From: Alphaproteobacteria bacterium
Lineage (GTDB): Bacteria > Pseudomonadota > Alphaproteobacteria > Rs-D84 > JAERRO01
DNA length: 58,450 nt
Reading direction: 5' to 3'
Assembly (NCBI GenBank): GCA_016735395.1
Contig: JAERRO010000017.1
Coordinates: forward strand, 1 to 58,450
Below are positions 14,530-57,989 of this stretch, piece by piece (positions within the stretch are counted from its first letter, which is position 1; each line of letters opens with the position of its first letter). The notes beneath the pieces are model-generated. The model ran no database searches. It was not told the DNA's origin and worked only from the letters and a program-made list of their open reading frames with translations. The position numbers and the translations under genes were made by a program.

Positions 14530-14871
14530 ATGGCAAAGAAATCAACGATACAACCTAACATAAAGAATTTTAATACTAATATAAATTATCAAAGTCAAAA
14601 TCAGTTATTACAACTTCAACTGTTGCTCAATCTTACAAAGAGTTTAATAAAGGAAGTAAAAGTTTATAAAACTGATAGTATAGATATAGCGGATCAGAAA
14701 ATAGAGAAAGTAAATGACAAAAATAGTATATTCCATCTAAAAGAACATCTTACTCAATTGGTTAAAGTAGCAAATAAAATAGTTAAGTCAAAAGGTATCA
14801 CAAAAAAATATTCGAATGTCGGAGATCTTTTCACTATATGTGAAGACTATCTAGATCAACACAGCAGATAA
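14530..14871 (+). CDS. Small protein, paralog family member 1 (unknown function)
   Basis: 113 aa. Shares its N-terminus and the C-terminal VGDLFTICEDYLDQHSR with paralog 2. A GC-rich hairpin plus T-run lies downstream (agagggctcttaacagggcccttttttg). Confidence 0.6.
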   Translation: MAKKSTIQPNIKNFNTNINYQSQNQLLQLQLLLNLTKSLIKEVKVYKTDSIDIADQKIEKVNDKNSIFHLKEHLTQLVKVANKIVKSKGITKKYSNVGDLFTICEDYLDQHSR

Positions 14872-15015: not shown

Positions 15016-15366
15016 ATGTCAAAAAATTCAACGATGCAACCGATCTTTAAAAACCTTAATCTGAAGGCTGGAGAGACATCACAAAATTCACTACTATCTT
15101 TTAGACTGTTAGTTAATTCTACGAAAACCTTAATGAAAGAGACAAAGATATATGGATCTGACTCTATAGAAGTAGCTCAAAATAAAATTGTAGAATCTGA
15201 CGATTCAAAAGTATTTACTACATATTCACATATCGATCTATTAGTTAAATTGGCTGATAGAATAACTTCGTTAACTGTTACTAAGAAAAAGAAGAAAAAG
15301 AAAATTTCAAAAGTCGGAGAGCTTTTCACTATATGTGAAGACTATCTAGATCGACACAGCAGATAA
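15016..15366 (+). CDS. Small protein, paralog family member 2
   Basis: 116 aa. C-terminal VGELFTICEDYLDRHSR. Contains a K7 tract encoded by aagaaaaagaagaaaaagaaa. Confidence 0.6.
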   Translation: MSKNSTMQPIFKNLNLKAGETSQNSLLSFRLLVNSTKTLMKETKIYGSDSIEVAQNKIVESDDSKVFTTYSHIDLLVKLADRITSLTVTKKKKKKKISKVGELFTICEDYLDRHSR

Positions 15367-44305: not shown

Positions 44306-44527
44306 TTATAAGTCAAGTTTTTTTATCATTTTTCCACCTTCCTTATGAGAATCTATCATCCTCTTTATCATCAAGACCAGAGTCCGTTGTCCTTCTAGCA
44401 TCCGTAGTTCTGAATCTGTAGCAGAGTGAGGGACGGATCTATATAGTGTTATATTCTCTAGATACTTTAAAAATTCTTTACCGTTGCGATTATTGAAGCA
44501 TAGGAAGCATTCTTTAGCTATATTCAT
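44306..44527 (-). CDS. Small phage-associated protein (Bbp19-like?)
   Basis: 73 aa, ATGA-coupled to the portal gene. FNNRNGKEFLKYLENITL...SELRMLEGQRTLVLMIKRMI resembles the small Bbp19-type phage family (from memory only). Confidence 0.35.
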   Translation of the reverse strand: MNIAKECFLCFNNRNGKEFLKYLENITLYRSVPHSATDSELRMLEGQRTLVLMIKRMIDSHKEGGKMIKKLDL

Positions 44528-45975
44528 ATGGCAGTCTCCTCTTTATCGATACTATCTTTAATTAGAGAGGCAGGTATATTCAAAGTTTTCGCGACCCATA
44601 TTAAGATTTCTTTATGTTCTAAAATATCATTACATCCCATACTATTAGCGACCTCTATAAAGCCGAACAGTTTGTTAGTCTTTTCATTTTGATGTAGTTG
44701 TGCTACAGGAGAGAGGTATGACATTTTAAACAGGCTATTGTCGTATAAGACAGGGTTAATAAGACCTCTACTAATTAAAATATCTATACTTCGAACTAGT
44801 AGAGGCTTCATAAGTTCCTCTTGAATTCTCCCGTATGTTGCCCCGAGCACCCTCATCAGAACGGCTTGTCGTTCTATAATTTCTGTGGCTGTCATACTAG
44901 AGGTATTTATCGAACTTAATTTATCGGTAAAAAGAGAAGATCTAATTCTTCTCCGAAGATCATTTAAAAGTTTATCTGAGACATTAAAATCACTAGGCAC
45001 TCGTAACGGGGTTAACCCTTGAGATCCTATTGCTTTAGGTATAACAACTCCGGGAGCTAATTTAAGGTTAGATATATTCATTACTCCGTCGTCTTCGACT
45101 TGCCACATACCAGAAACGGCTATAGAAGCATTTTTCAAAACCAACTCCATAACTTTATTGAGTGTCTTGATATCCGGCAGTGCTTTCATCACTGGAGAGT
45201 ACCCGTAAATTCCGTCTATCAGTTGATTCCATCTAAAGATAAGCAGAGGGTTAGTCTTGAAAGATCCACATTCTAGTGTGTTATGATTCGTTATGTCCTC
45301 ACCTAAAATAGACTTATCGAGGAAAACTTTTTTACTAGAAAAACCTACTGTTTGTTTTTCTATAATGTGCAGAATTTTAACTTTATAGGTAGAATTTTCT
45401 TCTAATACCTGTATAAGTCTAGGGTTATCTATTCGACTTCTAAACTTATTTAGAAACTCTCTAGCTAACATAGAAATTTTAAAAAACATAACATTGTTAT
45501 CTTCGCTAATAACTAGAGAAGCTATAGACACCGCTTTAAATTCGAAGATAGAATCACTTTCAAGCGGAGCATTCTTCATTAGCATACAGGCCGTCCCAGA
45601 AACGACTAGATCGTTATAACATTGATGAATTTCTGTTGAAAAGTTAGACATATCTAGATTAGAATTTATCAGATTATCGGCATCTTTTACTTGTTCCTTT
45701 ACTAGATTAAACTCTTCGGGATACAATTTATTCTCTAGATCTGTAGATGTCGACAAACTGAACCAAGGTGTGGAAGCTGGTGTTACGACGGAAAAGATAG
45801 AAGCTACTAATTGTTCTACGGCATCTAGTCCCGTTGAGTCGAAAATTTCTTTTTGATCTTTGACCTCTATGGGAAGTGTATACTTAAAACATTCACTCCA
45901 ATTTTTTTCTAGTTCTTGTCTTTTATCTTTTAGTTTATGATACTCTGTGATGAGTTGTTTTATATTAGATTTCAT
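44524..45975 (-). CDS. Phage portal (head-to-tail connector, T7 gp8-like)
   Basis: 483 aa. DGIYGYSPVMKALPDIKTLNKVMEL and TATEIIERQAVLMRVLGATYGRIQEELMKPLLVRSIDILISRGLI parallel T7 gp8 (ESYGRSYIEEYLGDLRSLENL; TAEEIRYVASELEDTLGGVYSILSQELQLPLV). Confidence 0.65.
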   Translation of the reverse strand: MKSNIKQLITEYHKLKDKRQELEKNWSECFKYTLPIEVKDQKEIFDSTGLDAVEQLVASIFSVVTPASTPWFSLSTSTDLENKLYPEEFNLVKEQVKDADNLINSNLDMSNFSTEIHQCYNDLVVSGTACMLMKNAPLESDSIFEFKAVSIASLVISEDNNVMFFKISMLAREFLNKFRSRIDNPRLIQVLEENSTYKVKILHIIEKQTVGFSSKKVFLDKSILGEDITNHNTLECGSFKTNPLLIFRWNQLIDGIYGYSPVMKALPDIKTLNKVMELVLKNASIAVSGMWQVEDDGVMNISNLKLAPGVVIPKAIGSQGLTPLRVPSDFNVSDKLLNDLRRRIRSSLFTDKLSSINTSSMTATEIIERQAVLMRVLGATYGRIQEELMKPLLVRSIDILISRGLINPVLYDNSLFKMSYLSPVAQLHQNEKTNKLFGFIEVANSMGCNDILEHKEILIWVAKTLNIPASLIKDSIDKEETAI

Positions 45976-46087
45976 TATTAAACTCCTTTAATTGAAAACT
46001 ACCCGATAGCTACGGGCGAGCATTATGAGACCTATAAAATAGGCATTTTATTAAATTAGAAAGACTATAATTATATACAGAATAATT

Positions 46088-46516
46088 TTATAGTTTAGGC
46101 AAGTTAGGCAAATAATTGTCTACTTGATCAGCTTTTATTAAAAAGCTTTGACATTTTATCTCGTCGACGGACATACCTGTAGCAAATTTTACTATAGGGT
46201 TCAGAGCTGTAAAAATCAGAAAGACAAAAAACAGATGTTTAATACTATCTATAATTTTCGGCGGATTTTGATCTCCCCGTATAGATATATTTTTTATAAT
46301 CAGTCCTACTGCCCAACCGAAAAATAGCAGACCGGCAATAATTTGAGACACTAGAAAAAGCATATCAAAAATATTAGTAAATACTTCAGGTGTACACATA
46401 GGATCTTTAAGCAAAAAATAGATACCGTCGCTATAGGACTTCATTGAAACTTCTAGACCTTGACCTCTCCAAATCTCTAGATATTCAGAAAAATTGTTAT
46501 CTCCATTTGATAACAT
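46088..46516 (-). CDS. Small membrane protein coupled to the FtsZ-like gene
   Basis: 142 aa. TM segments LFLVSQIIAGLLFFGWAVGLII and HLFFVFLIFTALNPIV. Its start lies 1 nt after the FtsZ-like stop (TAA-T-ATG). Confidence 0.45.
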   Translation of the reverse strand: MLSNGDNNFSEYLEIWRGQGLEVSMKSYSDGIYFLLKDPMCTPEVFTNIFDMLFLVSQIIAGLLFFGWAVGLIIKNISIRGDQNPPKIIDSIKHLFFVFLIFTALNPIVKFATGMSVDEIKCQSFLIKADQVDNYLPNLPKL

Positions 46517-46517
46517 A

Positions 46518-47744
46518 TTAGTTATCTTTAGGTAAATCGTCTAGCAGTGATCCATCTTTATCTTTAGGTTTCTTCTTTGAAAAAGGCAAACCTTGACTCA
46601 ACATATCGATAAATCCGATCCCATTTTTAGGTTTATCATCTAGACTTATTTTTTTCTTCAAAAAATCCGAATCAGACAGAGGATCATCTTCATCATTGAA
46701 TATTATATTTTTTCTTTCATCTTCGTCTACCATCTGTGTAGTGACGGTAGAAAAACCCACAACATTTTCTTCGACTATCGTCGTTCCGGACAAAACAGAC
46801 TCTAGACTTCCGTTGTCAAAATTTTCAAAAGAATTTATAAACTCGTCTTGAAAAGCTACTAGAGTGATCTTCATTCCGTCGTCTATTGTGGACTTTTCGT
46901 CATAAGAGATTGCGATATTTATATTATCTTGATATTGAACTATTTCGTGTAGAGACTTCATAAAAGATTCTATCCTAGTATATTTTACGACTTTTTTATT
47001 ACCGGAGAAATGCACATAAATTTTAGATGCATCTTGAGCTGATTGCACATTTAACAAAGGTTGTCGAAGTGATTTATTTACGACATCCTCGACAGTAGAG
47101 CTATAGTCATCTACATTGACGGAGGTCAAAATTTCGTTATGATTAGAAAGTGCCTCTAAAAAATCTACCCTAGACACATTTATAGATTTAGAATCGGCTA
47201 AAAATGTTAAAACTGACTTTATTATAATTACTTTTACACCTTGAACTATATTCATTATGGTATCGATAATTACATCCTCATCTTCACTAGATTTTGCACA
47301 TTGATCCCTAGAGATAACGGAAATGCTACCTGCTTTTTTATATATTATATCTAGTGTATCTTGAGACTGTTGTTTTAATTTTGAAGAGATAAATTGGAAC
47401 GGACGAGATGCGATTACTATAGAAAGTTTACCGTGTTTATTTATTAGGTCTAAAAGTTTCACTATTATTTTATATTCACCGACACTACCTAAATCCAGAC
47501 AAACAAAAACAACAGATAATGGCTCTAAAAACTCTACTAGTTTATTTGTCGATTCAGACTTATTATCGTCGACACCTTTCTCTATACAGTCCTCATCGTC
47601 AGTTACAGAGACATTTTCGTCTATTACGAAAAAGGTTGTATTTATTTCACTATCTGAACTAAATTGTTCTATATCTCTTTGAATAATATCAAGTTGAGTT
47701 TTCCCAACGGCGATTATTCCGATATTAGATTCACTATTTACCAT
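46518..47744 (-). CDS. Divergent FtsZ/tubulin-fold homolog lacking the GTP-binding signature
   Basis: 408 aa. VVFVCLDLGSVGEYKIIVKLLDLINKHGKLSIVIASRPFQFISSKLKQQS aligns by eye with FtsZ [57 protein letters not shown]...IYVHFSGNKK...INIAISYDEKSTIDDGMKITLVAF aligns with ISSPLLE...VLVNITAG...VVIGTSLDPDMNDELRVTVVAT. A TGATATAAT extended -10 and AAGGAG RBS lie upstream. Confidence 0.55.
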   Translation of the reverse strand: MVNSESNIGIIAVGKTQLDIIQRDIEQFSSDSEINTTFFVIDENVSVTDDEDCIEKGVDDNKSESTNKLVEFLEPLSVVFVCLDLGSVGEYKIIVKLLDLINKHGKLSIVIASRPFQFISSKLKQQSQDTLDIIYKKAGSISVISRDQCAKSSEDEDVIIDTIMNIVQGVKVIIIKSVLTFLADSKSINVSRVDFLEALSNHNEILTSVNVDDYSSTVEDVVNKSLRQPLLNVQSAQDASKIYVHFSGNKKVVKYTRIESFMKSLHEIVQYQDNINIAISYDEKSTIDDGMKITLVAFQDEFINSFENFDNGSLESVLSGTTIVEENVVGFSTVTTQMVDEDERKNIIFNDEDDPLSDSDFLKKKISLDDKPKNGIGFIDMLSQGLPFSKKKPKDKDGSLLDDLPKDN

Positions 47745-47873
47745 ATATGTTCTCCTTCTTATTATATCATAAAAAAGCGAATAAATCTAGTATGAAAGGA
47801 GAAAGATTTCGAAGTTAAAAAGTAGTTTGACTTTACGGTAAAGAACGGCTAAACTTCTATGTATAAAATACAA

Positions 47874-47949
47874 GGCTAGATAGCTCAGTTGGTAGAGCAA
47901 AAGACTGAAAATCTTTGTGTCGGGGGTTCGATTCCCTCTCTAGCCACCA
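47874..47949 (+). tRNA. tRNA-Phe (anticodon GAA), CCA encoded
   Basis: GGCTAGA-TA-GCTC..GAGC-A-AAAGA-CTGAAAA-TCTTT-GTGTC-GGGGG-TTCGATT-CCCTC-TCTAGCC-A-CCA. Confidence 0.92.
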
Positions 47950-48816
47950 TTATTTAATAATAATTTGCCCGTTAAAGACCATTCTCTCTGGCATTGTAGA
48001 AATACTAGCATTATGTATATATAGGTTCCCGTTTAAAATAGATTGATCAGAGAAGGAAACTTTTCTTACATTACTGACTATGATGTGTCCTTCTACCTTT
48101 AATTTTTTTGGCAGTCTAAAATTGGAAGAGATATCTTTAATAAATAAGTTTCCCTTAACGATAGTATTAGGTTTTATCGTGACAAGATTATTGCCTGTAA
48201 TTTTCAGGTCTCCGTTATGGACTATGACTTGTTCCTCAACTGGGATTCTTCTAGAGTTCACGACATAAGTAGAAGTACCTCCACCGTGCGGTATAGCGAT
48301 AGTAGATACATTTGTATACTTTTTAATTTTTCTGTTCTCTAATTCTAGAATTTCATCTACAAATTTCTGTTTTTCTCTATTTTTAGTTAAATTCGCAACA
48401 GGATAAATAAACTTGTTATTAATTTCTCTTCTATATACTGCCTCAGTTTTAGAGATTACTTTATCTACATCGATTGAGCTACTGTCTAAATCGATACTTT
48501 TTGTATCTATCACAGGAGATTTCTGTTCATAAATTTTAGCAAATTCTATACTTTTATAGAGGGAATCTATTTTCTTTTTTGCTAGTATATTAGAGTATTT
48601 GAATCCTATCATAAACCACAGATATAGCAGTACTGACATCAGGACGACTATAGCGAATACAAATCTGGCTGTCGCGGAAGTTCTATTTTTAATAAAATTC
48701 CAGGGTGCCGTTATGGTTTTTTTCGGAGACCATTTTTTAAAAGACAACTTTTTAAAAGACAACTTTTTAAACTGAATTTTAGATTTTCGTTTAGTTATTT
48801 TTTTATTATCGTTCAT
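47950..48816 (-). CDS. Membrane-anchored protein with C-terminal beta-helix-like repeats (bactofilin-like?)
   Basis: 288 aa. Basic N-terminus with KKLSF repeats (15-bp tandem repeat at 48734..48772). TM FVFAIVVLMSVLLYLWFMIGF. C-terminal periodic NGDLKITGNN / KGNLFIKD / EGHIIVSN / NGNLYIHN / NGQIIIK. Its stop abuts the tRNA-Phe 3' end. Confidence 0.35.
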   Translation of the reverse strand: MNDNKKITKRKSKIQFKKLSFKKLSFKKWSPKKTITAPWNFIKNRTSATARFVFAIVVLMSVLLYLWFMIGFKYSNILAKKKIDSLYKSIEFAKIYEQKSPVIDTKSIDLDSSSIDVDKVISKTEAVYRREINNKFIYPVANLTKNREKQKFVDEILELENRKIKKYTNVSTIAIPHGGGTSTYVVNSRRIPVEEQVIVHNGDLKITGNNLVTIKPNTIVKGNLFIKDISSNFRLPKKLKVEGHIIVSNVRKVSFSDQSILNGNLYIHNASISTMPERMVFNGQIIIK

Positions 48817-48948
48817 ATTTTGTTCCTATTTTATATATTATGTTGATAGTAATATACACCAATTATTCTATTTGTCAACACCCCTATAAAAAATAAAATC
48901 TTGTTTTAACCTTAAAAAAATGTATACTTAATTTAAAAGGTGATATAA

Positions 48949-49437
48949 ATGTTTAATAAAAAATTTAATATTTTAGAATCAGGCAGATCTATGATTGAGA
49001 TGCTAGGAGTTTTAGCTATTAGCAGTATGATAATCTCTGGGGCCTTATTGACTTATAAACAGATAAAAAGCAAGCAGACTAGAATTTTAGTTTTGGACGA
49101 AATTCACACGATATCTGATCGAGTTAATATCTTATATGCTGGGAGATCTTTTGAAGGTTTATCAACCGATTACTTGATTAAAGCTGGTGTCGTCAGAACT
49201 GATAAAAATCAAATGCACGGTAAATTAGTGGTCGGTTCTAGTCAGTTAGGAGAAAGTTTCTATATAGAATATAACAATCTCGACTATAGCGATTGCATAT
49301 ACTTTTACAAACAGTATATAGAGAGATTAAAAAGCAAGGAGATAAATACCGTTGAACTATTGAAGTTCGACAAGGACCGTAATGTAGATAATATCTGCAA
49401 TAGCGGAGATGAAAACAGAATACGATTTTACTTTTAG
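48949..49437 (+). CDS. Prepilin-type (type IV pilin/pseudopilin-like) protein
   Basis: 162 aa. N-terminal SGRSMIEMLGVLAISSMIISGALL fits the G/(F,M)xxxE prepilin cleavage-methylation motif plus hydrophobic helix. TTGTTT-N16-TGTATACT promoter upstream. It overlaps the convergent TerL-C gene by 4 nt. Confidence 0.55.
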   Translation: MFNKKFNILESGRSMIEMLGVLAISSMIISGALLTYKQIKSKQTRILVLDEIHTISDRVNILYAGRSFEGLSTDYLIKAGVVRTDKNQMHGKLVVGSSQLGESFYIEYNNLDYSDCIYFYKQYIERLKSKEINTVELLKFDKDRNVDNICNSGDENRIRFYF

Positions 49438-50231
49438 TTAGAGAAAAGAACTCGTCCTTCGAACCTAGGTAAAACTCGTAGAGAGTGTTTCAGGGCCATA
49501 GTCAAAGCATCTAGACCGTCATCTTTTTGATCTTTTTTAGCTAAAGAGAAATCTACAAATTCTTGAATAAACGGAGTTCGCAAAACTCTAGAATGGAATA
49601 AAATAGATTTAGAGGTAATCAGAGGTTCTAGAGTTTCAAAGATTCTCATAACTTTAGATGTTTTAGAAAAATACGGTTCTATGTATAATTTGAATTTCAT
49701 ATCTTTGGCAACTTGTTTCATCAGGGTAGGTATTAAGGCTCCTATACCGTTAACTTCGACGAATATGTGATTAAGTTTCAGTTGTTTAATTTTGAGGATA
49801 ACGGTTCTAATTTGATTCCGAAAGTCTTCTTGAGAATAGAAGCTCGAAAAATCTAAATAGAACATCTCGTGTACAAAATAATGTTGTGTTTCATCATTAA
49901 CAAAAACGAAAGCTACGACACTGGCATCACTATTACTTTTGCCTAGAGAGGGATCCCAAAAGCACCCTCCCCTGTGAAGTTTTTCTTCATTTAATAAATA
50001 TAAAATCTCATTATTATGATGATGAACTATGATGTCGTCGTCATAGTGGACTATCTGTTCTTCTTTAAAAACGGTAGAATTTGTGTCATAAAATTCGAGC
50101 ATCATTTGAGACATAAAAGCAAATTCACCTACCTTCAGTCTTAACCTCTGTATGACTTCTTCAGGAAATTGTTCTGGCCAAATAGACTTACCTCTATTGA
50201 TGATAGGCATATGAAAAAAATCATCTGTCAT
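49434..50231 (-). CDS. Terminase large subunit, C-terminal nuclease half (separate ORF)
   Basis: 265 aa. RNase H-like nuclease motifs GCFWDPSLGKSNSDASVVAFVF, IFVEVNGIG and KDDGLDALTMAL. Confidence 0.65.
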   Translation of the reverse strand: MTDDFFHMPIINRGKSIWPEQFPEEVIQRLRLKVGEFAFMSQMMLEFYDTNSTVFKEEQIVHYDDDIIVHHHNNEILYLLNEEKLHRGGCFWDPSLGKSNSDASVVAFVFVNDETQHYFVHEMFYLDFSSFYSQEDFRNQIRTVILKIKQLKLNHIFVEVNGIGALIPTLMKQVAKDMKFKLYIEPYFSKTSKVMRIFETLEPLITSKSILFHSRVLRTPFIQEFVDFSLAKKDQKDDGLDALTMALKHSLRVLPRFEGRVLFSN

Positions 50232-50335
50232 GGTGTATCTTTAAAAAATAGGGGATTATATAAAAATATAAAGAGGTCTCCAGAGTTGAGGAGAGAGAAT
50301 ATAAAATAGATTCAACACCTAGAAACCTCAAAATA

Positions 50336-50364
50336 GTTATAAGACACAATATATAATTTGTCAA
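50336..50364 (-). promoter_or_regulatory. Promoter-like element inside the gap between the two TerL halves
   Basis: Minus strand: TTGACA (50359..50364), 17-nt spacer, TATAAC (50336..50341). Confidence 0.4.
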
Positions 50365-50405
50365 GTACTATTTTAATTATTTTGTCAACAAAGAAAACAG
50401 GTCGA

Positions 50406-51026
50406 CTATTTTTGTTCGGTATTATAAATAGAGTTTAAACAGTGCGGAGTCCCTATAAAAAGTAGCAGTCCTTGTCCTCCCAGAATAAATTCTAATTCGA
50501 CAAGTCTATCCATAAGTTTTTCTCTTTTGGACGGGTTAGATACAGTATTAGGGACTTCGACATCGTCGCACAGAACTATATCTGCTCTTATTCCGGTGAC
50601 ATTAGCAAATATCCCAGTAGCTACGACAGAAGGATCTTTCAATACACCTATCCGTTTAACAGAGAACTTATCGCCTCCCCACTCTTTTTTAGTCCCTTTC
50701 TCCGGCACTAGATATTCACACAGCGGATGATTAGTTATAATATTTTGAATATGTCTCAACAACCTTTTAGCGAGTCTAGATTCGGCAGATAGGATAAGTA
50801 TTCTAGTCTGCGGATTTCTAAATAATAGCCAGGCTCCGAGCATTCCGACGAGTGTAGATTTACCAGAATATCGAAAAGCGAGTAGTACTGCTCTAGACCG
50901 TTTAGCTAAAATTATCCACTGTAGATATGCCCCCATCTTTTGCATATGCAGAGGTATACTTTTATCATAACATTGAATAAAGAAATTGAAACTTGAGAAT
51001 GCTACAACGGTATTTCTATCGTTCAT
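50406..51026 (-). CDS. Terminase large subunit, N-terminal ATPase half (separate ORF)
   Basis: 206 aa. Walker A FRYSGKSTLVG, Walker B ADIVLCDDVE, coupling motif FIGTPH. Ends with TAG at the domain linker. Confidence 0.65.
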   Translation of the reverse strand: MNDRNTVVAFSSFNFFIQCYDKSIPLHMQKMGAYLQWIILAKRSRAVLLAFRYSGKSTLVGMLGAWLLFRNPQTRILILSAESRLAKRLLRHIQNIITNHPLCEYLVPEKGTKKEWGGDKFSVKRIGVLKDPSVVATGIFANVTGIRADIVLCDDVEVPNTVSNPSKREKLMDRLVELEFILGGQGLLLFIGTPHCLNSIYNTEQK

Positions 51027-51035
51027 GAGGCATAG

Positions 51036-51686
51036 TTATATGTCGGTGAGGCTTCCGTAGTCCGTAGTCTCTATCGCTTCCTCGTCGATATTACCCAGAT
51101 CATCGATTATATTTGGCAGAGCTTCCTTAACGATTTTCACGAGGTTATTAAAAAGTCCTATTACCATATGAACAGATTGACTACTTGTTAAATCGTCTAC
51201 ATCTTGTTGAATTTTCCGTATAGTCGTCTTAAAATCGCAGACGACTTTTTCAAAATCGTCGGTACTCCTTCTAGAAGGCTGGTTATTTTTAATCTCTAGA
51301 ACGGCATCTTCCCCGCTTTCAATAGGGTCTATGGTGTCTTCAAAATTATTTATTCTAAAGGTTCTATCGAGAACTTCCTTAATGTCATTAATAGCCATAA
51401 ACAGAAAGTCGAGATCTTTATTTAGATCGTCTGCAGAAATATTTTTATATTGTTGAAATGAAGTTTTTCTTTCTATTTCCAGAACTCTATCGACAGTAAT
51501 AATATCTCCCTTTTCCGGAGTCTTATTAAAAGACACTTCTCCACCTTCGGCAAAAATTTCTACTAAATAGTTTCCTTGACTAATTAGCAGATCATTGATA
51601 AATACTCTCACATCATTTGCAGAGTATACAGAAAATGGAAAAGAAAATATTTTCTGTCCATCGGTAATATATTTTATAAAAGCCAT
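51036..51686 (-). CDS. T7-type tail-fibre N-terminal (tail-attachment) domain protein, lacks distal fibre
   Basis: 216 aa. YITDGQKIFSFPFSVYSANDVRVFINDLLISQGNYLVEI...VSFNKTPEKGDIITVDRVLEIERKTSFQQ...LNKDLDFLFMAINDIKE parallels the T7 gp17 N-terminus (YQLDGSNRDFNIPFEYLARKFVVVTL...IELRRVTSTTDRLVDF...YDLNVAQIQTMHVAEE). Confidence 0.5.
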   Translation of the reverse strand: MAFIKYITDGQKIFSFPFSVYSANDVRVFINDLLISQGNYLVEIFAEGGEVSFNKTPEKGDIITVDRVLEIERKTSFQQYKNISADDLNKDLDFLFMAINDIKEVLDRTFRINNFEDTIDPIESGEDAVLEIKNNQPSRRSTDDFEKVVCDFKTTIRKIQQDVDDLTSSQSVHMVIGLFNNLVKIVKEALPNIIDDLGNIDEEAIETTDYGSLTDI

Positions 51687-51712
51687 AGCTTATCCTTTTT
51701 TGATTAAATTAT

Positions 51713-52174
51713 TTATTTTAAAATAGAAGTGATCGCTGACCTCCCTTTGTCGAACAAACTTCGTTTTTGAGGAGTCTTAAAGACCGATTTTTTTTGTCTA
51801 TAACGAATATCTTGTTTAGTATTTTCGTATTTGTTATCATCGTCTAGCACAGAAATTTTATCATCAGATTCATTTTTCCGTCTAGTCTGTAGAGCTTTAG
51901 CAGAAGAAGAAAACAGAGAAACTCCTCTAGCCCCTAAAGAGGCATTATCTTTTGCAATATTTTGTTTTATATTTTGATTTTCCTTTTTGACAGCGGTCTT
52001 ATGTTTTTTATTTCTATATTTAGTTTCTGCTTGTTTTAATTGTCGGTCAAAAACCATATGATCTACTTCCTCTTTCTTGCCTAGAAGAGGATCTAGAAAT
52101 TTCAGATCAGTTTTATTGACTATTTTACTTGTTACATTTTTAAAACTATTAAATGTTTTTTTTAAGAATCCCAT
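51713..52174 (-). CDS. Basic, low-complexity virion-cluster protein (unknown)
   Basis: 153 aa, Lys/Arg-rich, no motif recognised. Confidence 0.4.
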   Translation of the reverse strand: MGFLKKTFNSFKNVTSKIVNKTDLKFLDPLLGKKEEVDHMVFDRQLKQAETKYRNKKHKTAVKKENQNIKQNIAKDNASLGARGVSLFSSSAKALQTRRKNESDDKISVLDDDNKYENTKQDIRYRQKKSVFKTPQKRSLFDKGRSAITSILK

Positions 52175-52184
52175 AAAAGTCCTT

Positions 52185-54095
52185 TTAGTTAAATTGGAGA
52201 TTTGAGTGAAAGGAAATTCCTATCAGATGGAAGTTAACGGGGTCGTCTCCCTGTATTTTCCAAAGCGGTATTTCCATATTATGAGTCCATCCTATAGAAT
52301 TAATTTCTATAGTTCGGACAGCATTATTTTGAGTGATTGATTTATCTGTGTTGATTATATTGTTATCGACATAGACATTTTTATATCCATTACCTAGATC
52401 TATTGATATCCGGTTGGTATCTTTTACGACGGCATTAAACTTTATTATTCTACAATATTTCAGTCCCTTAAAAGGGCCATACCGATATGGCATTGGAGCT
52501 ACGGTATGTGTGTACGGTGTACCGACTATCCAGTTTAATTTTCGTGTATCTGTAGTATCGATAATTTTATTTACTTTATCGACTCTCAGAACGGTATTAT
52601 CTTGATATGCGATGACATCTTTTCCTATAAGATGTTTAGGAGTGATCAAAAAGTTATTATCATTTTTACATACGACGGAGTGATCGACAGATATATCTGC
52701 GGAAAACTTTTCGAAGAAAAATCTACCATCGACTTCACAGATTACATATACGGTTTGATTAACGACACACACAGACTTAAATTTGCCTACACATGTATGG
52801 AGAGACCATGCATATTTTCTAGAGTCTTTGAGGTAAGTTACTATTGCCAGCGATCCATCTTGCATTACGATATATATTTTTTGATCGAGATCATTATAGT
52901 CTAGATCTACTGGAGAGTTCATTAGGTGATTAGCTACCTTAGCGATATCTCTGGTGACATATTTCAGTCCTGTATCGTCTAGCATCATTTCTCTGATCTC
53001 TTTTCCATTTCTTCCTACGAAGAAAGTCGCACCTTCCATGTGTCTAGGTGGGATAAAAGAATTATTATATGTCCCGACATTAGTCTGTTTTATGATCTTA
53101 ACAGTATCCATCTTTATAGGACTACCGAATATTACCCATTCACCGATGGAGGTCAAGATCTCTAAATTCAGAGATGAAACCATACTATTTATTCTTAAAG
53201 GTGTTGACGACATAAGAGTTAAATCCATAGCATCGTCGTCGAGTCCTTCACCGAACTCGAAGTTAAATAACTCGAAAGTTTTAGACATAAAAATTCTGTA
53301 CGGCATATCTCTAGTCCCACCGATGACGAGTCTCCCTTGATGAACGATAGTATGGATAGGAAACCCTCTAGCGATTGAGCAAACTTTTTCTCTCCAGTTT
53401 GATGTCTTATCTATAACTTTATTTTCACCGGAGATAAAATTTACTTTCATCTGTTTAGGAGAGATATATTCGACGGTCTCTACTTCATAGATATCTTTAA
53501 CATCGTCGCCGACATTGAAGATAAAAACACCGTGTAGATTTTGTAATTCAAAAATAGATCTATCTGAGTTAATAAAATAAATTATTTTTCCTTCGTCATC
53601 GACATCGCTAGAAATAGAAAACTGGACATTCTCCCAGCCTCTAAATTTTATAACTGGAGAAAAGTCTTTCTTGACTATATTCCAAGATTCATCTTTAGAG
53701 TAAGAGATAAGATGAGGAGATATATCTTCATGTGTAAACAAAACAAATTTATCTATAAATGTCCAAGAGATATCCATAATTTGTTCGGGCGAATAGAAAG
53801 ACTTAAAAGTAGTAATAATTTTATCGTCGTTAAAAACATAGATAATTTTTTCGGTTAAAACTATTACTCCTGACCGTTTATCACTAAAAGGGAGTGCGAT
53901 AATTCTACCTACGGATCCTATCTCATGTAGGAGCATAGTGCCGTCTCTCCTTTTGATACCGCCAGAGTGATGTACTATCATATTTCGCAAGAGAAAAAGA
54001 GCATCGCTTTGGTTAGGTTCTTCGACAGAATTGATGAGTGTCTCTGCGACTTCACCTTGAGAAAAATTAAATTGTGTGTATAGTGAGTTAGTCAT
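52185..54095 (-). CDS. Tail tubular (nozzle) protein B, T7 gp12-like
   Basis: 636 aa. RIFMSKTFELFNFEFGEGLDDDAMDLTL...LEILTSIGEWVI...FFVGRNGKEIREM parallels T7 gp12 (IILSRTAKYFNFYPASIANLSDDDPIDVAV...LLIWSDEAQFVL...YFASPRSSFTSIHRY). Positioned right after the gp11-like gene. Confidence 0.5.
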   Translation of the reverse strand: MTNSLYTQFNFSQGEVAETLINSVEEPNQSDALFLLRNMIVHHSGGIKRRDGTMLLHEIGSVGRIIALPFSDKRSGVIVLTEKIIYVFNDDKIITTFKSFYSPEQIMDISWTFIDKFVLFTHEDISPHLISYSKDESWNIVKKDFSPVIKFRGWENVQFSISSDVDDEGKIIYFINSDRSIFELQNLHGVFIFNVGDDVKDIYEVETVEYISPKQMKVNFISGENKVIDKTSNWREKVCSIARGFPIHTIVHQGRLVIGGTRDMPYRIFMSKTFELFNFEFGEGLDDDAMDLTLMSSTPLRINSMVSSLNLEILTSIGEWVIFGSPIKMDTVKIIKQTNVGTYNNSFIPPRHMEGATFFVGRNGKEIREMMLDDTGLKYVTRDIAKVANHLMNSPVDLDYNDLDQKIYIVMQDGSLAIVTYLKDSRKYAWSLHTCVGKFKSVCVVNQTVYVICEVDGRFFFEKFSADISVDHSVVCKNDNNFLITPKHLIGKDVIAYQDNTVLRVDKVNKIIDTTDTRKLNWIVGTPYTHTVAPMPYRYGPFKGLKYCRIIKFNAVVKDTNRISIDLGNGYKNVYVDNNIINTDKSITQNNAVRTIEINSIGWTHNMEIPLWKIQGDDPVNFHLIGISFHSNLQFN

Positions 54096-54106
54096 AAGTT
54101 TCCCTA

Positions 54107-54676
54107 TTAGTTTTTATTTCTAGAGTGGAGAAGAGTATTGTCTTGAACAACAGTTAAACCATCTTGTTGAGAGTCTATTTGTCTACCGTGAGCAAAGCTT
54201 ATATCGAAAGCCTTCGAATGCAAATAGTGCAAACTAGAATCTTGAGTAAGAGGAATAGCGAAAGTCATAGCGAGTCTATCGATTAGTACTTGAGTAAAAT
54301 AGATAGGAAAATCTATTTCATCTACTGCAGTAATATACATAATATAAACTGTATTTGATGTCGTAAAAATCTTTCTACCGTTAATTTTATAGTCGATTAG
54401 TAAAGGAGAACTTTCTACTGAAGAAACTTGAATTAGTCTAATACAGTCCTTCGGCAGTTCAAAATAGTAATTACTATTGTCAGTTTTATCTAACATTTTT
54501 ACCAGTTGTAGAGACCGTTTAGTAAATCTCCAGGGGTAAATGGAGAAGACGAAATCACGAGTATTGTTGTATAAATTAGAGGCTATCTGTGATGCTACCG
54601 TAGAGTCATCAAAACTCTGAATAGGTTGACTCCCAAGCCTAATTAAAGCTTGAGAGCAGATATCGATATCGTTCAT
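54107..54676 (-). CDS. Tail tubular (adaptor) protein A, T7 gp11-like
   Basis: 189 aa (T7 gp11 is ~196 aa). ICSQALIRLGSQPIQSFDDST...NNTRDFVFSIYPWRF...FPIYFTQVLIDRLAMTFA parallels T7 gp11 (VNDILASIGEPPVSTLEGD...QIQSRGWTF...MPECFRYWIVTKASRQF). Confidence 0.55.
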   Translation of the reverse strand: MNDIDICSQALIRLGSQPIQSFDDSTVASQIASNLYNNTRDFVFSIYPWRFTKRSLQLVKMLDKTDNSNYYFELPKDCIRLIQVSSVESSPLLIDYKINGRKIFTTSNTVYIMYITAVDEIDFPIYFTQVLIDRLAMTFAIPLTQDSSLHYLHSKAFDISFAHGRQIDSQQDGLTVVQDNTLLHSRNKN

Positions 54677-54679
54677 CTT

Positions 54680-54925
54680 CTATACAAGAGAAGCTAGAAC
54701 GACTCCTTGATCGGAGACAGATTCTACGACTCTAAAAGCGAGTTGCGGAGTTCCCGCGGTATCTGTTGCTATTATGATTAGATCGTGTGGGTTAATCATA
54801 TTAGAAACTTCTCCGAAGTATTTTGGGTCGAAAATATCGACGATTGAGTCGACCGATTTATAGTGCCATAATGTAAATCCATTAGCATAAGATATCACGG
54901 CCAAGTTTTTTGAAATGAAAGACAT
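54680..54925 (-). CDS. Small virion-cluster protein (unknown)
   Basis: 81 aa, located between the capsid and adaptor genes. Confidence 0.4.
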   Translation of the reverse strand: MSFISKNLAVISYANGFTLWHYKSVDSIVDIFDPKYFGEVSNMINPHDLIIIATDTAGTPQLAFRVVESVSDQGVVLASLV

Positions 54926-54954
54926 AAAAAATCCTTTTTTGTTATTAAGTTAAG

Positions 54955-55779
54955 TTAAGATAGGTCGTTGCAACAAAGTTTTACGATACCTGTATCATCG
55001 ATTAAAGCGGATCCTTGACTCATAGAATTACTCACGAAGAATGAAGCTCTCTCACCATGCCAAGAAATATCTGTTTTGATATCTTGAGCTACGGCGTGTC
55101 CGATAGCACTTTTATGGTAGATAAAACAAGATCGTTCATCAGAGTCAGAGATCGGCAGTTCGTTATGTAAGATCCATACGATACCCATCCATTTTCTATT
55201 TTCACTTCCGTTTAAAAGAGGGTGAGCATCGCCGACATAGTCGGACTTCACAAATTCATCCATTTGGAGAAGTTCGTTCCATTGATGAACTCCGACAACG
55301 GCAAATCTTTGTCCGTCGTCAGGGACATTCTTAGAGTTAAGTTGTTCGACGGCTTTTAAGATGATTTCTTTCGTCAGACCTGTAGAAAAGTCCCCAGAAT
55401 TTTGGGTCGTTTCATTTAGTTTATTGATAATGAGTTCGTCAGTTTTTTGCCCTAGAGCATAAGCTCCGGCACTAGCGACTACTCTTCGTTCATCTATATT
55501 AGTTTTAAGTTCGTCTAAAGCGTCGACCCAGTCTCCTGCATAATAGTCTTGAAGAAGACATTCTACAGGTTCATAAGATAGGTTCATTACAGGAACCATA
55601 CCATGGCGAGATTTAGTATTAGCGACACCTTTACCTACTTTTTGAAATACAGTGTTAGATCCGACAATATTATTTTTCGTTCTAACGGTATTACGAAGTT
55701 TTGTTCCCATTTGTTGGTAGCAACTGTGAACTTCTGCTTCAAAGTGTTTGATAAAAGCTGATTCAATGTTTACAGACAT
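54955..55779 (-). CDS. Major capsid protein (T7 gp10-like family)
   Basis: 274 aa. FIKHFEAEVHSCYQQMGTKLRNTVRTKNNIVGSNTVFQKVGKGVANTK...DWVDALDELKTNIDERRVVASAGAYALGQKTDELII parallels T7 gp10 (FLKVFGGEVLTAFARTSV...RSISSGKSAQFPVLGRTQA...IYDIEDAMNHYDVRSEYTSQLGESLAMAADGAVL). Confidence 0.6.
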   Translation of the reverse strand: MSVNIESAFIKHFEAEVHSCYQQMGTKLRNTVRTKNNIVGSNTVFQKVGKGVANTKSRHGMVPVMNLSYEPVECLLQDYYAGDWVDALDELKTNIDERRVVASAGAYALGQKTDELIINKLNETTQNSGDFSTGLTKEIILKAVEQLNSKNVPDDGQRFAVVGVHQWNELLQMDEFVKSDYVGDAHPLLNGSENRKWMGIVWILHNELPISDSDERSCFIYHKSAIGHAVAQDIKTDISWHGERASFFVSNSMSQGSALIDDTGIVKLCCNDLS

Positions 55780-55818
55780 TAAAAATCCTTTTGATTATAT
55801 ATAAAATATTTAAATTTC

Positions 55819-55835
55819 GTAGAATTTATTTCTAC
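55819..55835. promoter_or_regulatory. Inverted repeat GTAGAA-N5-TTCTAC in the capsid-gene leader
   Basis: Read directly. It lies downstream of the minus-strand TTCAAA (55886..55891)-N17-TATATA (55863..55868) promoter-like element and shares half-sites with the 9398..9411 palindrome. Confidence 0.35.
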
Positions 55836-55893
55836 ATTTATATTCGTATGACTTGACACTTATATATATTTTTTGTGCAAGTTATTTTGAATA

Positions 55894-55970
55894 TAAAAAA
55901 AGCTCATATACAGGTGATATATGAGCTTTTTTTATAGCCATAAAAAAGTCCCTCTTTTTATAGAGGGACT
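55894..55970 (-). terminator. Two tandem rho-independent terminators
   Basis: AGCTCATATA (55901..55910) / TATATGAGCT (55918..55927), flanked by A7 and T7. AGTCCCTCT (55947..55955) / AGAGGGACT (55962..55970), with a T-run on the minus strand. Confidence 0.75.
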
Positions 55971-55996
55971 TCTAATTTTTTAATGATAGATTCAGA

Positions 55997-56659
55997 TTAT
56001 TCTCTATAGAAGACACTCATTATCTGTTGATAAATAGATCTAATAGCGGATATTATAAAGAAAGATACGAAAAATGTCACGATACCCACGAAGAAACCGT
56101 ACTGCATGGCATCTACAGATGAGAGACAAAAGCTTTGCCCTTGACAGATAACGAGATATACTCTACCGAAAATATTCGTTGCATCTAGATAAGAGAATAT
56201 TCCTATAAAAGTACTAAAAAAGAAAGATATCTTAATATTAGAGACTAAAATTTTAGGAAATTTTCTTTTAGCTAATTTTTTATTATGTAGTTTCATAAAG
56301 AAGAATAAAGCAATGAACATAAACAACATACTAAACATCAGAATAGTAAAAGTCTTGACTCCGACGGCCATAGAGGCATAGAGTATTTGTCCTGTATCTT
56401 TAGGGTAAAAGTAGGAGAGTTCTCTATATTGAGTTATAAAGAAATTCAAAGACAGAACAAAAGAATAGATGAAAGATATCCAGCACCATATCTTCATAAT
56501 CAGTTGAACTCCTATGGTATTGACAACATTATTTATCTCTTTACCGATAATATTTACAGAGTTTCCTACATGTTTAGTTCTAACGATAGTAGGGTGAGTT
56601 TTACGAGCGATCGGTTTTACACTAGACTTTTTAATCTTGGCTTTGGGTGTATTAGTCAT
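55997..56659 (-). CDS. Polytopic membrane protein inserted between the scaffold and capsid genes
   Basis: 220 aa. Basic N-terminus, then ~5 hydrophobic segments. Followed by the double terminator. Confidence 0.45.
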   Translation of the reverse strand: MTNTPKAKIKKSSVKPIARKTHPTIVRTKHVGNSVNIIGKEINNVVNTIGVQLIMKIWCWISFIYSFVLSLNFFITQYRELSYFYPKDTGQILYASMAVGVKTFTILMFSMLFMFIALFFFMKLHNKKLAKRKFPKILVSNIKISFFFSTFIGIFSYLDATNIFGRVYLVICQGQSFCLSSVDAMQYGFFVGIVTFFVSFFIISAIRSIYQQIMSVFYRE

Positions 56660-56737
56660 ATTATATTCTCCTTTTATCTCTATCCTATACTATAAATTTT
56701 AAAGGTAAAGGTCAAGTAAAATTTAGATCTATATCGA

Positions 56738-57319
56738 TTATTTTTTACCGTATAAGATTGCGAACCCTTTGTCTACTTTTCTGACGACCTCTGGGTTATG
56801 TTCTCTCCAGTATTGTGGATCCTGCATTATTTTTTTGAGGGACTTTTCCGTAGGTACTGCAGACTTTTTATCTGGGTTATCGTTAAAGTCTGGTTCTTGT
56901 GCATTCATTAGATAGTACATAGACATTATACCTCTTGCCGAAGATGCTAGCAGTTTAAACTCGTCTGGTTCTAGAAAAGCGTTTCCCCATTGTTCTAGTT
57001 TATCTGCGACTTTATTCCAGGCATCTTGAGATCCAAAGAAGTCGACAATTTTGTCTACCTCGGAGGAGGAGAAGTCATCTTGAGACATTTTTTCTAGTTC
57101 TGGCAAAACGAGTTCTTCTATAATGTTGTATACTTCTTGAGCCTGTTTATTATCTAGTCCCGCCTGAATCAGTCGTTTATTTATATCAGAGTTATCCTCT
57201 AATATGTCGGACTTTATATTATATTCTGTATTAGATTTTATATTACCGTCCACATTTTTATTATCGACGGCATTGTTATCTAGAGCTACATTATTTTTAT
57301 TTATATTATTGTCTATCAT
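56738..57319 (-). CDS. Capsid assembly (scaffolding) protein-like
   Basis: 193 aa, acidic and helical. The C-terminal DPQYWREHNPEVVRKVDKGFAILYGKK resembles the conserved tail of T7-group scaffolding proteins (from memory). Confidence 0.45.
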   Translation of the reverse strand: MIDNNINKNNVALDNNAVDNKNVDGNIKSNTEYNIKSDILEDNSDINKRLIQAGLDNKQAQEVYNIIEELVLPELEKMSQDDFSSSEVDKIVDFFGSQDAWNKVADKLEQWGNAFLEPDEFKLLASSARGIMSMYYLMNAQEPDFNDNPDKKSAVPTEKSLKKIMQDPQYWREHNPEVVRKVDKGFAILYGKK

Positions 57320-57552
57320 TATTTAGTTCCTTTAGCGGTTGTTTTATTAGGGTTAAAAACGGAAAAAGTAGAAGATATCTTCTTTTTGAAGAAAATCACT
57401 CCACATAGCGAAGCTACAGTAGAGATCATCAGATCCAGATTCATATCGCCGATAGCCCAGGCAGTTATAGCAGAAATGATACCTACGATAGCAGATAGCA
57501 GAATTTTTTTATCTTTGAGGAATCCCCCGTTAGATATGGTTGAAAGTTTCAT
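57319..57552 (-). CDS. Small two-TM protein (holin candidate)
   Basis: 77 aa. Two hydrophobic segments (ILLSAIVGIISAITAWAI; MISTVASLCGVIFF) and a basic C-terminus. It overlaps both the hydrolase gene and the scaffold gene. Confidence 0.4.
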   Translation of the reverse strand: MKLSTISNGGFLKDKKILLSAIVGIISAITAWAIGDMNLDLMISTVASLCGVIFFKKKISSTFSVFNPNKTTAKGTK

Positions 57553-57989
57553 AAAAGCTCCTTGATTTTAAAATTATGATCAAACTTGTAGAAGACAAGA
57601 GGATTGATCTCGATTATAGGTAACCAGTCAAGAGTCCACTCCGGGGATTCTGACAGGTGGTGAAAAGCGGTACTACCAAGAGTTCTATCGTGGAGTAAAC
57701 CCGAGCAGGCTCTTCTAGCAGTTCTCAAGCAAACTTGAAATTCTGGATCGTAGATAGGCACTTGCATCGGTTGAATTTTTTTAGAGTTCCAGGAATTAAA
57801 CAATTTGGTATCTCGCAAAATTTCATTCAGAGGGATATTATCATCGTTAGCCCTATTGACGATCATAGTTGCAAGAGCCTCTTTTACTCCTAGTTGCAGT
57901 GTAATCGTTTCGGTCATGATTACTCTAGCCATGAGATAAATCATAGTTTCGAGATTTTCATTACAAAGATGGTCGCAAAGTTGCGTCAT
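57549..57989 (-). CDS. Cell-wall hydrolase (SleB/Hydrolase_2-like endolysin candidate)
   Basis: 146 aa. IYLMARVIMTETITLQLGVKEALATMIVNRAND...LFNSWN follows the SleB-type pattern (A..i..Ea..e...G..AVa.Vi.NR......qF..w). AAGGAG RBS upstream. Confidence 0.5.
   Translation of the reverse strand: MTQLCDHLCNENLETMIYLMARVIMTETITLQLGVKEALATMIVNRANDDNIPLNEILRDTKLFNSWNSKKIQPMQVPIYDPEFQVCLRTARRACSGLLHDRTLGSTAFHHLSESPEWTLDWLPIIEINPLVFYKFDHNFKIKELL

Follow-up and report, generated by a model that had tools for sequence, protein, structure and literature searches.

A divergent FtsZ homologue, apparently without a nucleotide pocket, at the ancestral ftsZ position of a host-associated alphaproteobacterium

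Few bacterial proteins are as conserved as FtsZ, whose GTP pocket is as a rule nearly invariant. Several derived relatives have been described. In plants, the protein ARC3 has an FtsZ-like domain that is "probably not a functional GTPase" and that acts as an inhibitor of FtsZ1 assembly (PMC3494859). In Agrobacterium FtsZ1 and FtsZ3 the GTPase domain is present and the tail is absent (10.1101/412759; 10.1101/2025.09.29.679267), and the FtsZl1 and FtsZl2 families have the intact loop GGGTG(S/T)G as their defining feature (Makarova & Koonin 2010, PMC2875224). Here we describe a gene at positions 46518–47744 on the minus strand (stop codon 46518–46520) of contig JAERRO010000017.1 from an alphaproteobacterial genome assembly (GCA_016735395.1). 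The whole 58,450-nucleotide stretch that was analysed is referred to as the window. The gene encodes a 408-aa protein that is a remote homologue of FtsZ, it occupies the position at which relatives carry a canonical ftsZ, and its product appears from alignments to be a pseudo-GTPase.

The FtsZ ancestry of the 408-aa protein was revealed by profile, sequence and structure comparisons. The TIGR00065 model (positions 90–322) matched residues 64–298 with an E value of 1.2e-7, at a score of 31.4 bits, which is far under the curated cutoff of 295.2, and FtsZ chains in the PDB matched with E values of about 1e-4. An exhaustive phmmer search of 1.84e9 representatives returned the protein itself and 56 matches with 17–25% identity (E values from 7.5e-9 to 1e-3), and all ten of the matches that were checked proved to be Tubulin+FtsZ_C proteins. 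A hidden Markov model (HMM) built from the phmmer matches gave the query 111 bits over residues 63–301. The Pfam scan of the protein reported neither PF00091 nor PF12327 even at E ≤ 1, and no other Pfam domain; a word-indexed protein search found the query itself alone, and a scan of genome contigs with the protein found nothing. AlphaFold2 (AF2), supplied with the alignment of the matches, gave a model with a predicted local distance difference test score (pLDDT) of 77 and a predicted template-modelling score of 0.73, most of residues 7–300 scoring above 90. In this model, the predicted secondary structure is colinear with that of FtsZ, and the protein adopts the two-domain FtsZ fold. Foldseek placed FtsZ at the top of the matches to the model (E 9.5e-20, template-modelling score about 0.76). 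In the BFVD viral library the best match was a viral FtsZ (1.8e-12), and PhuZ was much weaker (2.5e-6). The 408-aa protein is thus a remote FtsZ homologue, as a first-pass annotation made from the letters alone had proposed. It consists of a globular two-domain core (residues 1–300; nt 46845–47744, minus strand) and a disordered acidic/basic tail (residues 301–408; nt 46521–46844, minus strand).

The residues that distinguish a functional FtsZ from its fold were examined by motif mapping with MAFFT (two alignments) and an HMM alignment. The first 62 residues were mapped by MAFFT, one phmmer alignment (P0005, query 12–319) and AF2, and their assignment is less certain. The 408-aa protein keeps 18 of the 65 FtsZ columns that are conserved at 75% or more, and only 2 of the 23 conserved positions in the nucleotide-binding elements T1–T4 and T6. 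The equivalent of T1 (G-box 1, G-GGGxN) is AVGKTQLD (residues 12–19; 47688–47711, minus strand), in which, with the less certain mapping of this region, one of five conserved residues remains. The nucleotide-contact residues of T2 are lost, and the T3 loop is deleted. At T4, DLGSVGEYK (residues 84–92; 47469–47495, minus strand) stands for G-x-GGGTGTG, with one of six glycines kept. The loss of this signature had been noticed in the first-pass annotation, and the register given there (DLGSVGE) was two residues off. The PFxFEG sequence of T5 has become PFQFIS, in which isoleucine replaces the glutamate, the asparagine of T6 is replaced by arginine, and the conserved alanine and phenylalanine of H7 are replaced by isoleucine and methionine. 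The T7 synergy loop (NxDFAD) corresponds to NVSRVD (residues 189–194; 47163–47180, minus strand), in the NVSRVDF region to which it had already been assigned, and the insertion postulated there is not needed in the HMM alignment. The PFxF motif of T5, the xPLL (SPLL-type) motif, and strands S8–S10, which define the fold, are kept. The fact that these fold residues are present in a core that has diverged so far indicates that the fold determinants were retained and the ligand loops were not. In none of the computed alignments are the nucleotide-binding loops intact, in agreement with the annotation, and the alignments indicate that the 408-aa protein is an FtsZ that became a pseudo-GTPase through loss of the nucleotide pocket. 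It would no longer be able to bind or hydrolyse GTP, and consequently could not by itself form a dynamic Z-ring polymer.

The origin of the gene was disclosed by its position. We scanned about 170 portal-bearing loci (GTDB genomes, IMG/VR, and individual contigs) with the FtsZ HMM and found FtsZ only in three of them, L005, L012, and L081, where it is encoded just upstream of the portal gene and on the same strand. These three proteins are canonical (388–464 bits, with intact GGGTG[ST]G and NLDFAD) and full-length, with a long linker and a C-terminal peptide. The other portal loci (80 from IMG/VR and about 80 from genomes) contained neither FtsZ nor the transmembrane (TM) module described below. 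In the window, the 408-aa gene lies between a divergent tRNA-Phe(GAA) gene (47874–47949, plus strand) and a podovirus-type portal gene (44524–45975, minus strand; PF12236, E 9.5e-88), as had been annotated, and not in a dcw context. ARAGORN detected the opposite-strand tRNA-Phe(GAA) upstream of the gene in the window, L005, L012, and a further locus, L002 (contig JAVBPX010000006.1 of GCA_031549365.1), and the tRNA is also present in L081, with two open reading frames (ORFs) inserted between it and the gene. In an alignment of the upstream regions of these five loci, the extended -10 sequence TG[AG]TATAAT is invariant. The slot is therefore defined by the opposite-strand tRNA-Phe, a TGnTATAAT -10 element, the gene, and the portal gene, and examination of the neighbourhood showed it to be conserved in the window, L002, L005, L012, and L081. 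Housekeeping genes surround ftsZ in L012 and L081 (an AmiC-type amidase gene, ruvB, spoT, truA, fmt, def, and der).

The shared slot and the canonical ftsZ in L005, L012, and L081 identify the 408-aa gene as a positional orthologue of chromosomal ftsZ in a fast-evolving, AT-rich, host-associated alphaproteobacterium, and not as the paralog that the first-pass annotation had supposed. The ancestral unit comprised an opposite-strand tRNA-Phe, a TGnTATAAT promoter, ftsZ, and a coupled gene for a membrane-anchored periplasmic peptidoglycan hydrolase, adjoining the portal gene. The FtsZ core of the window protein is 15–19% identical to those of the orthologues, which are 47–51% identical among themselves. 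The corresponding values for the portal protein are 40–42% between the window and the other four loci and 44–54% among those four (50–54% among L005, L012, and L081). With the portal only moderately accelerated, the divergence of the FtsZ core is gene-specific and does not simply reflect a fast clock. The portal distances failed to show which loci are closest to the window, the window portal being a long branch with about 42% identity to everything. On the far side of the tRNA, a 288-aa single-TM protein without a family match is encoded at 47950–48816 (minus strand), its stop codon abutting the 3' end of tRNA-Phe. Its homologues occur near ftsZ and the portal gene in exactly L005, L012, and L081. 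The N-terminal part of the 288-aa protein contains a basic repeat, KKLSFKKLSFKKWSPKK, and its C-terminal part appears, on inspection by eye, to be rich in beta structure.

The reading frame and its signals are well preserved. At the G+C content of the window (33.5%), stop codons are expected at 7.4% of codons, and the probability that 408 codons stay open by chance is about 2.7e-14. Moreover, none of 20000 shuffled versions of the gene remained open, and thus the frame is not a chance ORF. A second strain differed from the window in this gene by one synonymous single-nucleotide polymorphism. A Shine-Dalgarno sequence, AAGGAGA, read directly from the sequence, is located at 47751–47757 (minus strand), 6 nt before the ATG at 47744. 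The extended -10 element TGATATAAT lies upstream at 47761–47769 (minus strand), in agreement with the first-pass annotation. The end of this element is only 16 nt from the ATG; the doubt that this distance raised about the element was dropped in view of its invariance in the five loci. The leader of a transcript starting from this promoter must, on these coordinates, be very short. No CtrA box (TTAA-N7-TTAA) was found in a search of the upstream regions of the five loci. PADLOC gave no match for the gene pair or its neighbours, and Rfam matches were confined to four tRNAs. The maintenance of both frame and fold through such extreme divergence argues that the 408-aa protein is still used.

The tail of the protein, which includes a basic stretch, also carries traces of its ancestry. 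GFIDML (residues 377–382; 46599–46616, minus strand; motif A) has counterparts in the orthologue tails, namely DLISML in L005, DLIEML in L081, and FGLLDLI in L002. The protein ends with DDLPKDN (residues 402–408; 46521–46541, minus strand) immediately before the stop codon, a vestigial form of the C-terminal conserved peptide, which is EIPTFLR in L005, EIPAMFK in L081, DIPSFLK in L012, and FDLPKFLR in L002. Compared with the canonical form D-[IL]-P-x-F-[LF]-[RK], the window peptide is without the F-L-R half.

The closest counterpart found in this analysis is a relic in L002, where a 441-aa ORF (L002:1339-2664) occupies the same slot. The order there is tRNA-Phe, the -10 element, the gene, the TM-module gene, the portal gene, and the gene for the small phage protein Bbp19, followed by those for SerRS and L21; the arrangement of the portal gene, Bbp19, and then SerRS and L21 is common to L002 and the window. 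The first 50 residues of the L002 relic align to S8-H10-S9 of FtsZ, and the whole GTPase domain is gone. A candidate G-box remnant upstream of the relic was rejected, as it turned out to be the translated tRNA-Phe gene. The middle part consists of acidic repeats, and the end, FGLLDLI...FDLPKFLR, is a good C-terminal peptide. The relic is coupled by overlap to a gene for a protein with the TM module, GH108, and PG_binding_3. The two relics are thus alike in their slot, acidic linker, tail motifs, and a partner homologous to the 142-aa protein of the window. They differ in that L002 has lost the entire GTPase domain, has kept the canonical DLPKFLR, and has a partner that still contains GH108 and PG_binding_3. 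The two lineages thus appear to have lost the GTPase function at the ftsZ slot in different ways, each keeping an open gene with a promoter. The retention of S8-H10-S9, the linker, and DLPKFLR in L002 points to the C-terminal part as one that may be of retained value.

The 408-aa gene is tightly coupled to the gene of this 142-aa two-TM protein (46088–46516, minus strand) through a TAA-T-ATG junction, the second start lying 1 nt past the first stop, exactly as first annotated. The hydrophobic spans of the 142-aa protein comprise approximately residues 45–79 and 87–115. The protein is 28% identical over 138 aa to the N-terminal 170 residues of the L002 partner (E 9e-12), and it matches the N-terminus of a protein encoded 2 nt after the canonical ftsZ in L012 (HMM E 1.3e-6). 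The alignment of this module contains 12 invariant positions, including two cysteines that flank the TM pair. Beyond the module, the L002 partner continues into GH108 and PG_binding_3, and the L012 partner into a VgrG3_C-like domain; both start with sequences that by eye resemble signal peptides. In contrast, the window protein ends after the module, gave no Pfam hydrolase match, and is without a signal peptide. A word-indexed protein search with the TM-module alignment found the query itself alone, and a scan of JGI metagenomes with the same alignment found nothing. These comparisons indicate that the 142-aa protein is the membrane module of a peptidoglycan hydrolase whose hydrolase domain has apparently been lost here. 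As judged from the charge distribution, only about 12 residues, forming a short RG-containing loop, are likely to be cytoplasmic. If this loop is the sole cytoplasmic part, the 142-aa protein is unlikely to be a membrane anchor for FtsZ, the role first proposed for it.

Most likely, the 408-aa protein is a non-catalytic regulator or scaffold derived from FtsZ, acting beside a functional FtsZ encoded elsewhere in the genome, although we put forward this interpretation tentatively, at a little short of an even chance. The dead FtsZ would regulate or scaffold division or septal wall remodelling. It may dock on subunits of FtsZ or on the ends of its filaments by way of the bottom face that it retains (the T7 asparagine and aspartate and the C-terminal domain), may compete through its tail, or may do both. 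Once docked, it would be unable to support further GTP-dependent growth, a mechanism like the one suggested for the FtsZ-like domain of ARC3 in plants. Several observations weigh against this interpretation. No second ftsZ was found in the approximately 66 kb of genome examined, that is, the window plus 7.3 kb of contig JAERRM010000026.1 of GCA_016735385.1, which is 99.94% identical in the overlap. The reduced appearance of the two genes would also be consistent with slow decay. The 408-aa protein has no close homologue from which purifying selection could be gauged. In the T7 equivalent, the asparagine and the second aspartate are kept, and the first aspartate has been replaced by serine. The truncated peptide (DLPKDN) makes competition for FtsA-type partners doubtful. 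Finally, AF2 with the single sequence gave a poor model (pLDDT 38), and the confident model is partly circular, its alignment consisting of FtsZs only.

The absence of another FtsZ from these 66 kb is what would be expected if the 408-aa protein were the sole FtsZ of the organism. The lineage, L002 included, would then live without a GTP-driven Z ring, and either the protein would have a residual structural or tethering role or division would depend on other machinery, as in the Chlamydiae. The gene occupies the ancestral ftsZ slot, which in relatives holds full-length copies that include the linker and the C-terminal peptide, as a primary FtsZ would. In addition, small symbiont genomes rarely retain two ftsZ genes, and in L002 nothing of the GTPase domain is left at this slot. 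However, these 66 kb cover only a small part of the genome, which encodes a class A penicillin-binding protein, TrcR, and SspB and is not extremely reduced. We know of no loss of FtsZ function in the Alphaproteobacteria, and a relic kept for so long is more easily explained as a modulator of a partner that still exists. We therefore regard a sole, GTPase-deficient FtsZ as unlikely. The broader proposition that a lineage comprising this genome and L002, independently or jointly, is without any GTP-competent FtsZ, its only orthologue being a pseudo-GTPase or a headless tail, also seems rather improbable to us. If it holds, a peptidoglycan-containing proteobacterium divides without a GTP-driven Z ring and keeps the relic for another role, and if the 408-aa protein is indeed the sole FtsZ, this would be the first alphaproteobacterial lineage to abandon the FtsZ GTPase.

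Alternatively, the pair could be a functionless remnant, in which the decaying 408-aa and 142-aa ORFs remain open only because they are transcribed and translated ahead of the portal gene, on which stop codons would exert polarity. Catalytic parts have been lost from both genes, and the decay in L002 is different and more drastic. The adjacency of ftsZ and the portal gene has been kept in five lineages despite scrambling elsewhere, and just a weak terminator-like hairpin (46001–46017, minus strand; from a consensus scan only) separates the pair from the portal gene. Polarity avoidance, however, would not keep a core that is still compatible with FtsZ (111 bits, and detection by TIGR00065 and PDB chains), nor would it keep the 12 invariant residues of the 142-aa module, the cysteine pair among them. 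The strong Shine-Dalgarno sequence and the conserved promoter likewise speak against a remnant, and the deletion bias of reduced genomes should have purged 1.6 kb of useless DNA. We accordingly regard a functionless remnant as unlikely, and prefer the regulator or scaffold described above.

The gene pair is embedded in a phage-like cluster, and a phage- or element-associated factor was among the roles suggested in the first-pass annotation. The cluster contains genes for a scaffold, a capsid, tubular proteins A and B, a fibre, a split terminase, the portal, and the Bbp19-like small phage protein (44306–44527, minus strand), which follows the portal gene. Homologues of the portal number in the thousands, with identities of about 40%, and come mostly from Alphaproteobacteria. 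In two intact elements, L170 and L171, the order is portal, Bbp19, scaffold, capsid, tube A, tube B, large terminase (TerL), and hydrolase, and an S24 repressor gene and small ORFs, with no FtsZ, precede the portal gene. In the window (44306–57989) the order is hydrolase, scaffold through TerL, pilin, the 288-aa protein, tRNA-Phe, the ftsZ-like gene, the TM protein, portal, and Bbp19, and the host-derived block sits exactly at the junction of the cluster rearrangement. A tblastn search of 50,697 phage records gave no match. It is very unlikely that the 408-aa protein is an accessory of this element with a membrane anchor of its own, whether as a cytoskeletal or partition factor or as an FtsZ antagonist that stops the host from dividing while particles are produced. 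In favour of such a role, its gene does lie within the structural cluster, with the split terminase on one side and the portal gene on the other, and its adjacency to the portal gene is seen in five lineages; FtsZ homologues are also encoded by phages (the BFVD matches), and phage-encoded FtsZ inhibitors exist. Against it, the FtsZ and TM module are absent from some 160 other portal loci, the intact elements carry other genes at that place, the phage records gave no tblastn match, the orthologues are canonical ftsZ genes amid housekeeping genes, and the fold matches cellular FtsZ (E 1e-19) more closely than it does PhuZ or TubZ (E 2.5e-6). The apparent phage context represents inherited synteny with a domesticated podovirus-like gene set and should not be taken as evidence of phage function.

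Other features of the cluster and its surroundings were observed. The large terminase is split into two ORFs (49434–50231 and 50406–51026, both on the minus strand), a nuclease part of 265 aa and an ATPase part of 206 aa. The same split occurs in related loci of Rickettsiales-like and alphaproteobacterial metagenome-assembled genomes (MAGs) (L038, L081, L086, L087, L004, and L088). In some of these, host genes such as dnaB separate the two halves or adjoin them. TerL of L171 is intact (488 aa). This pattern suggests an old, vertically inherited, and domesticated podovirus-type set, possibly resembling a gene transfer agent, rather than a recent prophage. A paper on RcGTA-type elements in protist endosymbionts (PMC9254644) contains no mention linking them to this podovirus-type cluster. 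The capsid protein (54955–55779, minus strand) is about 70% identical to those of loci in Candidatus Enterousia and Rickettsiales MAGs (L077, L083–L085, and L038), and its nearest relatives among named phages are Pelagibacter podophages, at 47% identity; the portal of the same cluster reaches only about 42%. To judge from these identities, constraint on the capsid is probably unusually strong for a genome that evolves so fast. A type IV pilin-like protein with weak PilS and N_methyl matches and one N-terminal hydrophobic span is encoded antisense in the cluster (48949–49437, plus strand), and its homologues are found beside the portal gene of L038 and at the edge of L012.

At a distance of 35 kb from the structural cluster, a gene at 9523–10854 (plus strand) encodes a 443-aa protein with an Mtd_N domain (the N-terminal domain of the major tropism determinant, as in BPP-1-type tail fibres). 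It lies beside a PIF1-like helicase gene (8054–9346, plus strand), and the relative L004 carries a bAvd-like gene. Two adjacent paralogous ORFs, at 14530–14871 and 15016–15366 (both on the plus strand), encode proteins of 113 and 116 aa with the N-termini MAKKSTIQPN... and MSKNSTMQPI.... Just past the right end of the window, in GCA_016735385.1 (L172), small ORFs at L172:137-427 and L172:2660-2953 contain Sushi/CCP and Kazal domains, which are eukaryote-like. These ORFs hint at a symbiosis of the organism with an animal or another eukaryote.

The gene described here thus stands at the ancestral ftsZ locus with its fold, promoter, and open frame kept and its nucleotide pocket apparently discarded, and a relative has kept the tail and discarded the GTPase domain. 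Canonical FtsZ (TIGR00065; PF00091 plus PF12327; the alphaproteobacterial long-linker type) shares with the window protein the fold, the tail, motif A, and the D-L-P part of the peptide, of which a remnant is left here, and in L005, L012, and L081 also the slot and the promoter. The window protein differs from it in lacking the T1, T2, T3, T4, T6, and H7 contacts and the F-L-R half of the peptide, in being only 15–19% identical to its positional orthologues, and in scoring far under the curated cutoffs. PhuZ and TubZ belong to the same tubulin/FtsZ superfamily and are encoded by mobile elements. They are, however, active GTPases with C-terminal tails and partners of their own, they gave a much weaker structural match than FtsZ did, and no homologue of the 408-aa protein was found in related phage genomes. 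FtsZl1 and FtsZl2 are likewise divergent members of the FtsZ superfamily that occur outside dcw clusters, sometimes with membrane-associated partners. FtsZl1 has no FtsZ C-terminal domain and is found in operons with vWA, GTPase, or OmpA genes, whereas in the window protein the defining loop is destroyed and the neighbours are tRNA-Phe, the two-TM protein gene, and the portal gene.

Among the truncated alphaproteobacterial paralogues, Agrobacterium FtsZ1 and FtsZ3 and Magnetospirillum FtsZm resemble the 408-aa protein in being derived or non-essential copies of FtsZ that are thought to tune division. Their GTPase domain, complete or partial, has about 48–49% identity to E. coli FtsZ, and they are additional copies, located elsewhere in the genome, without the linker and peptide, whereas the window protein has kept the tail and lost the GTP site at the ancestral locus. 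The best functional analogy for a retained pseudo-GTPase is plant ARC3, which contains an FtsZ-derived domain without the GTPase motifs. ARC3 itself is a chimeric eukaryotic protein that works with MinD and MinE and includes a MORN domain, which the window protein does not have. There is no sequence relationship between the two beyond the FtsZ superfamily, and the comparison is one of analogy only, not of membership. If the 408-aa protein is a regulator, it would be a bacterial counterpart of ARC3, a division regulator made from a dead FtsZ, and the mirror image of the truncated paralogues.

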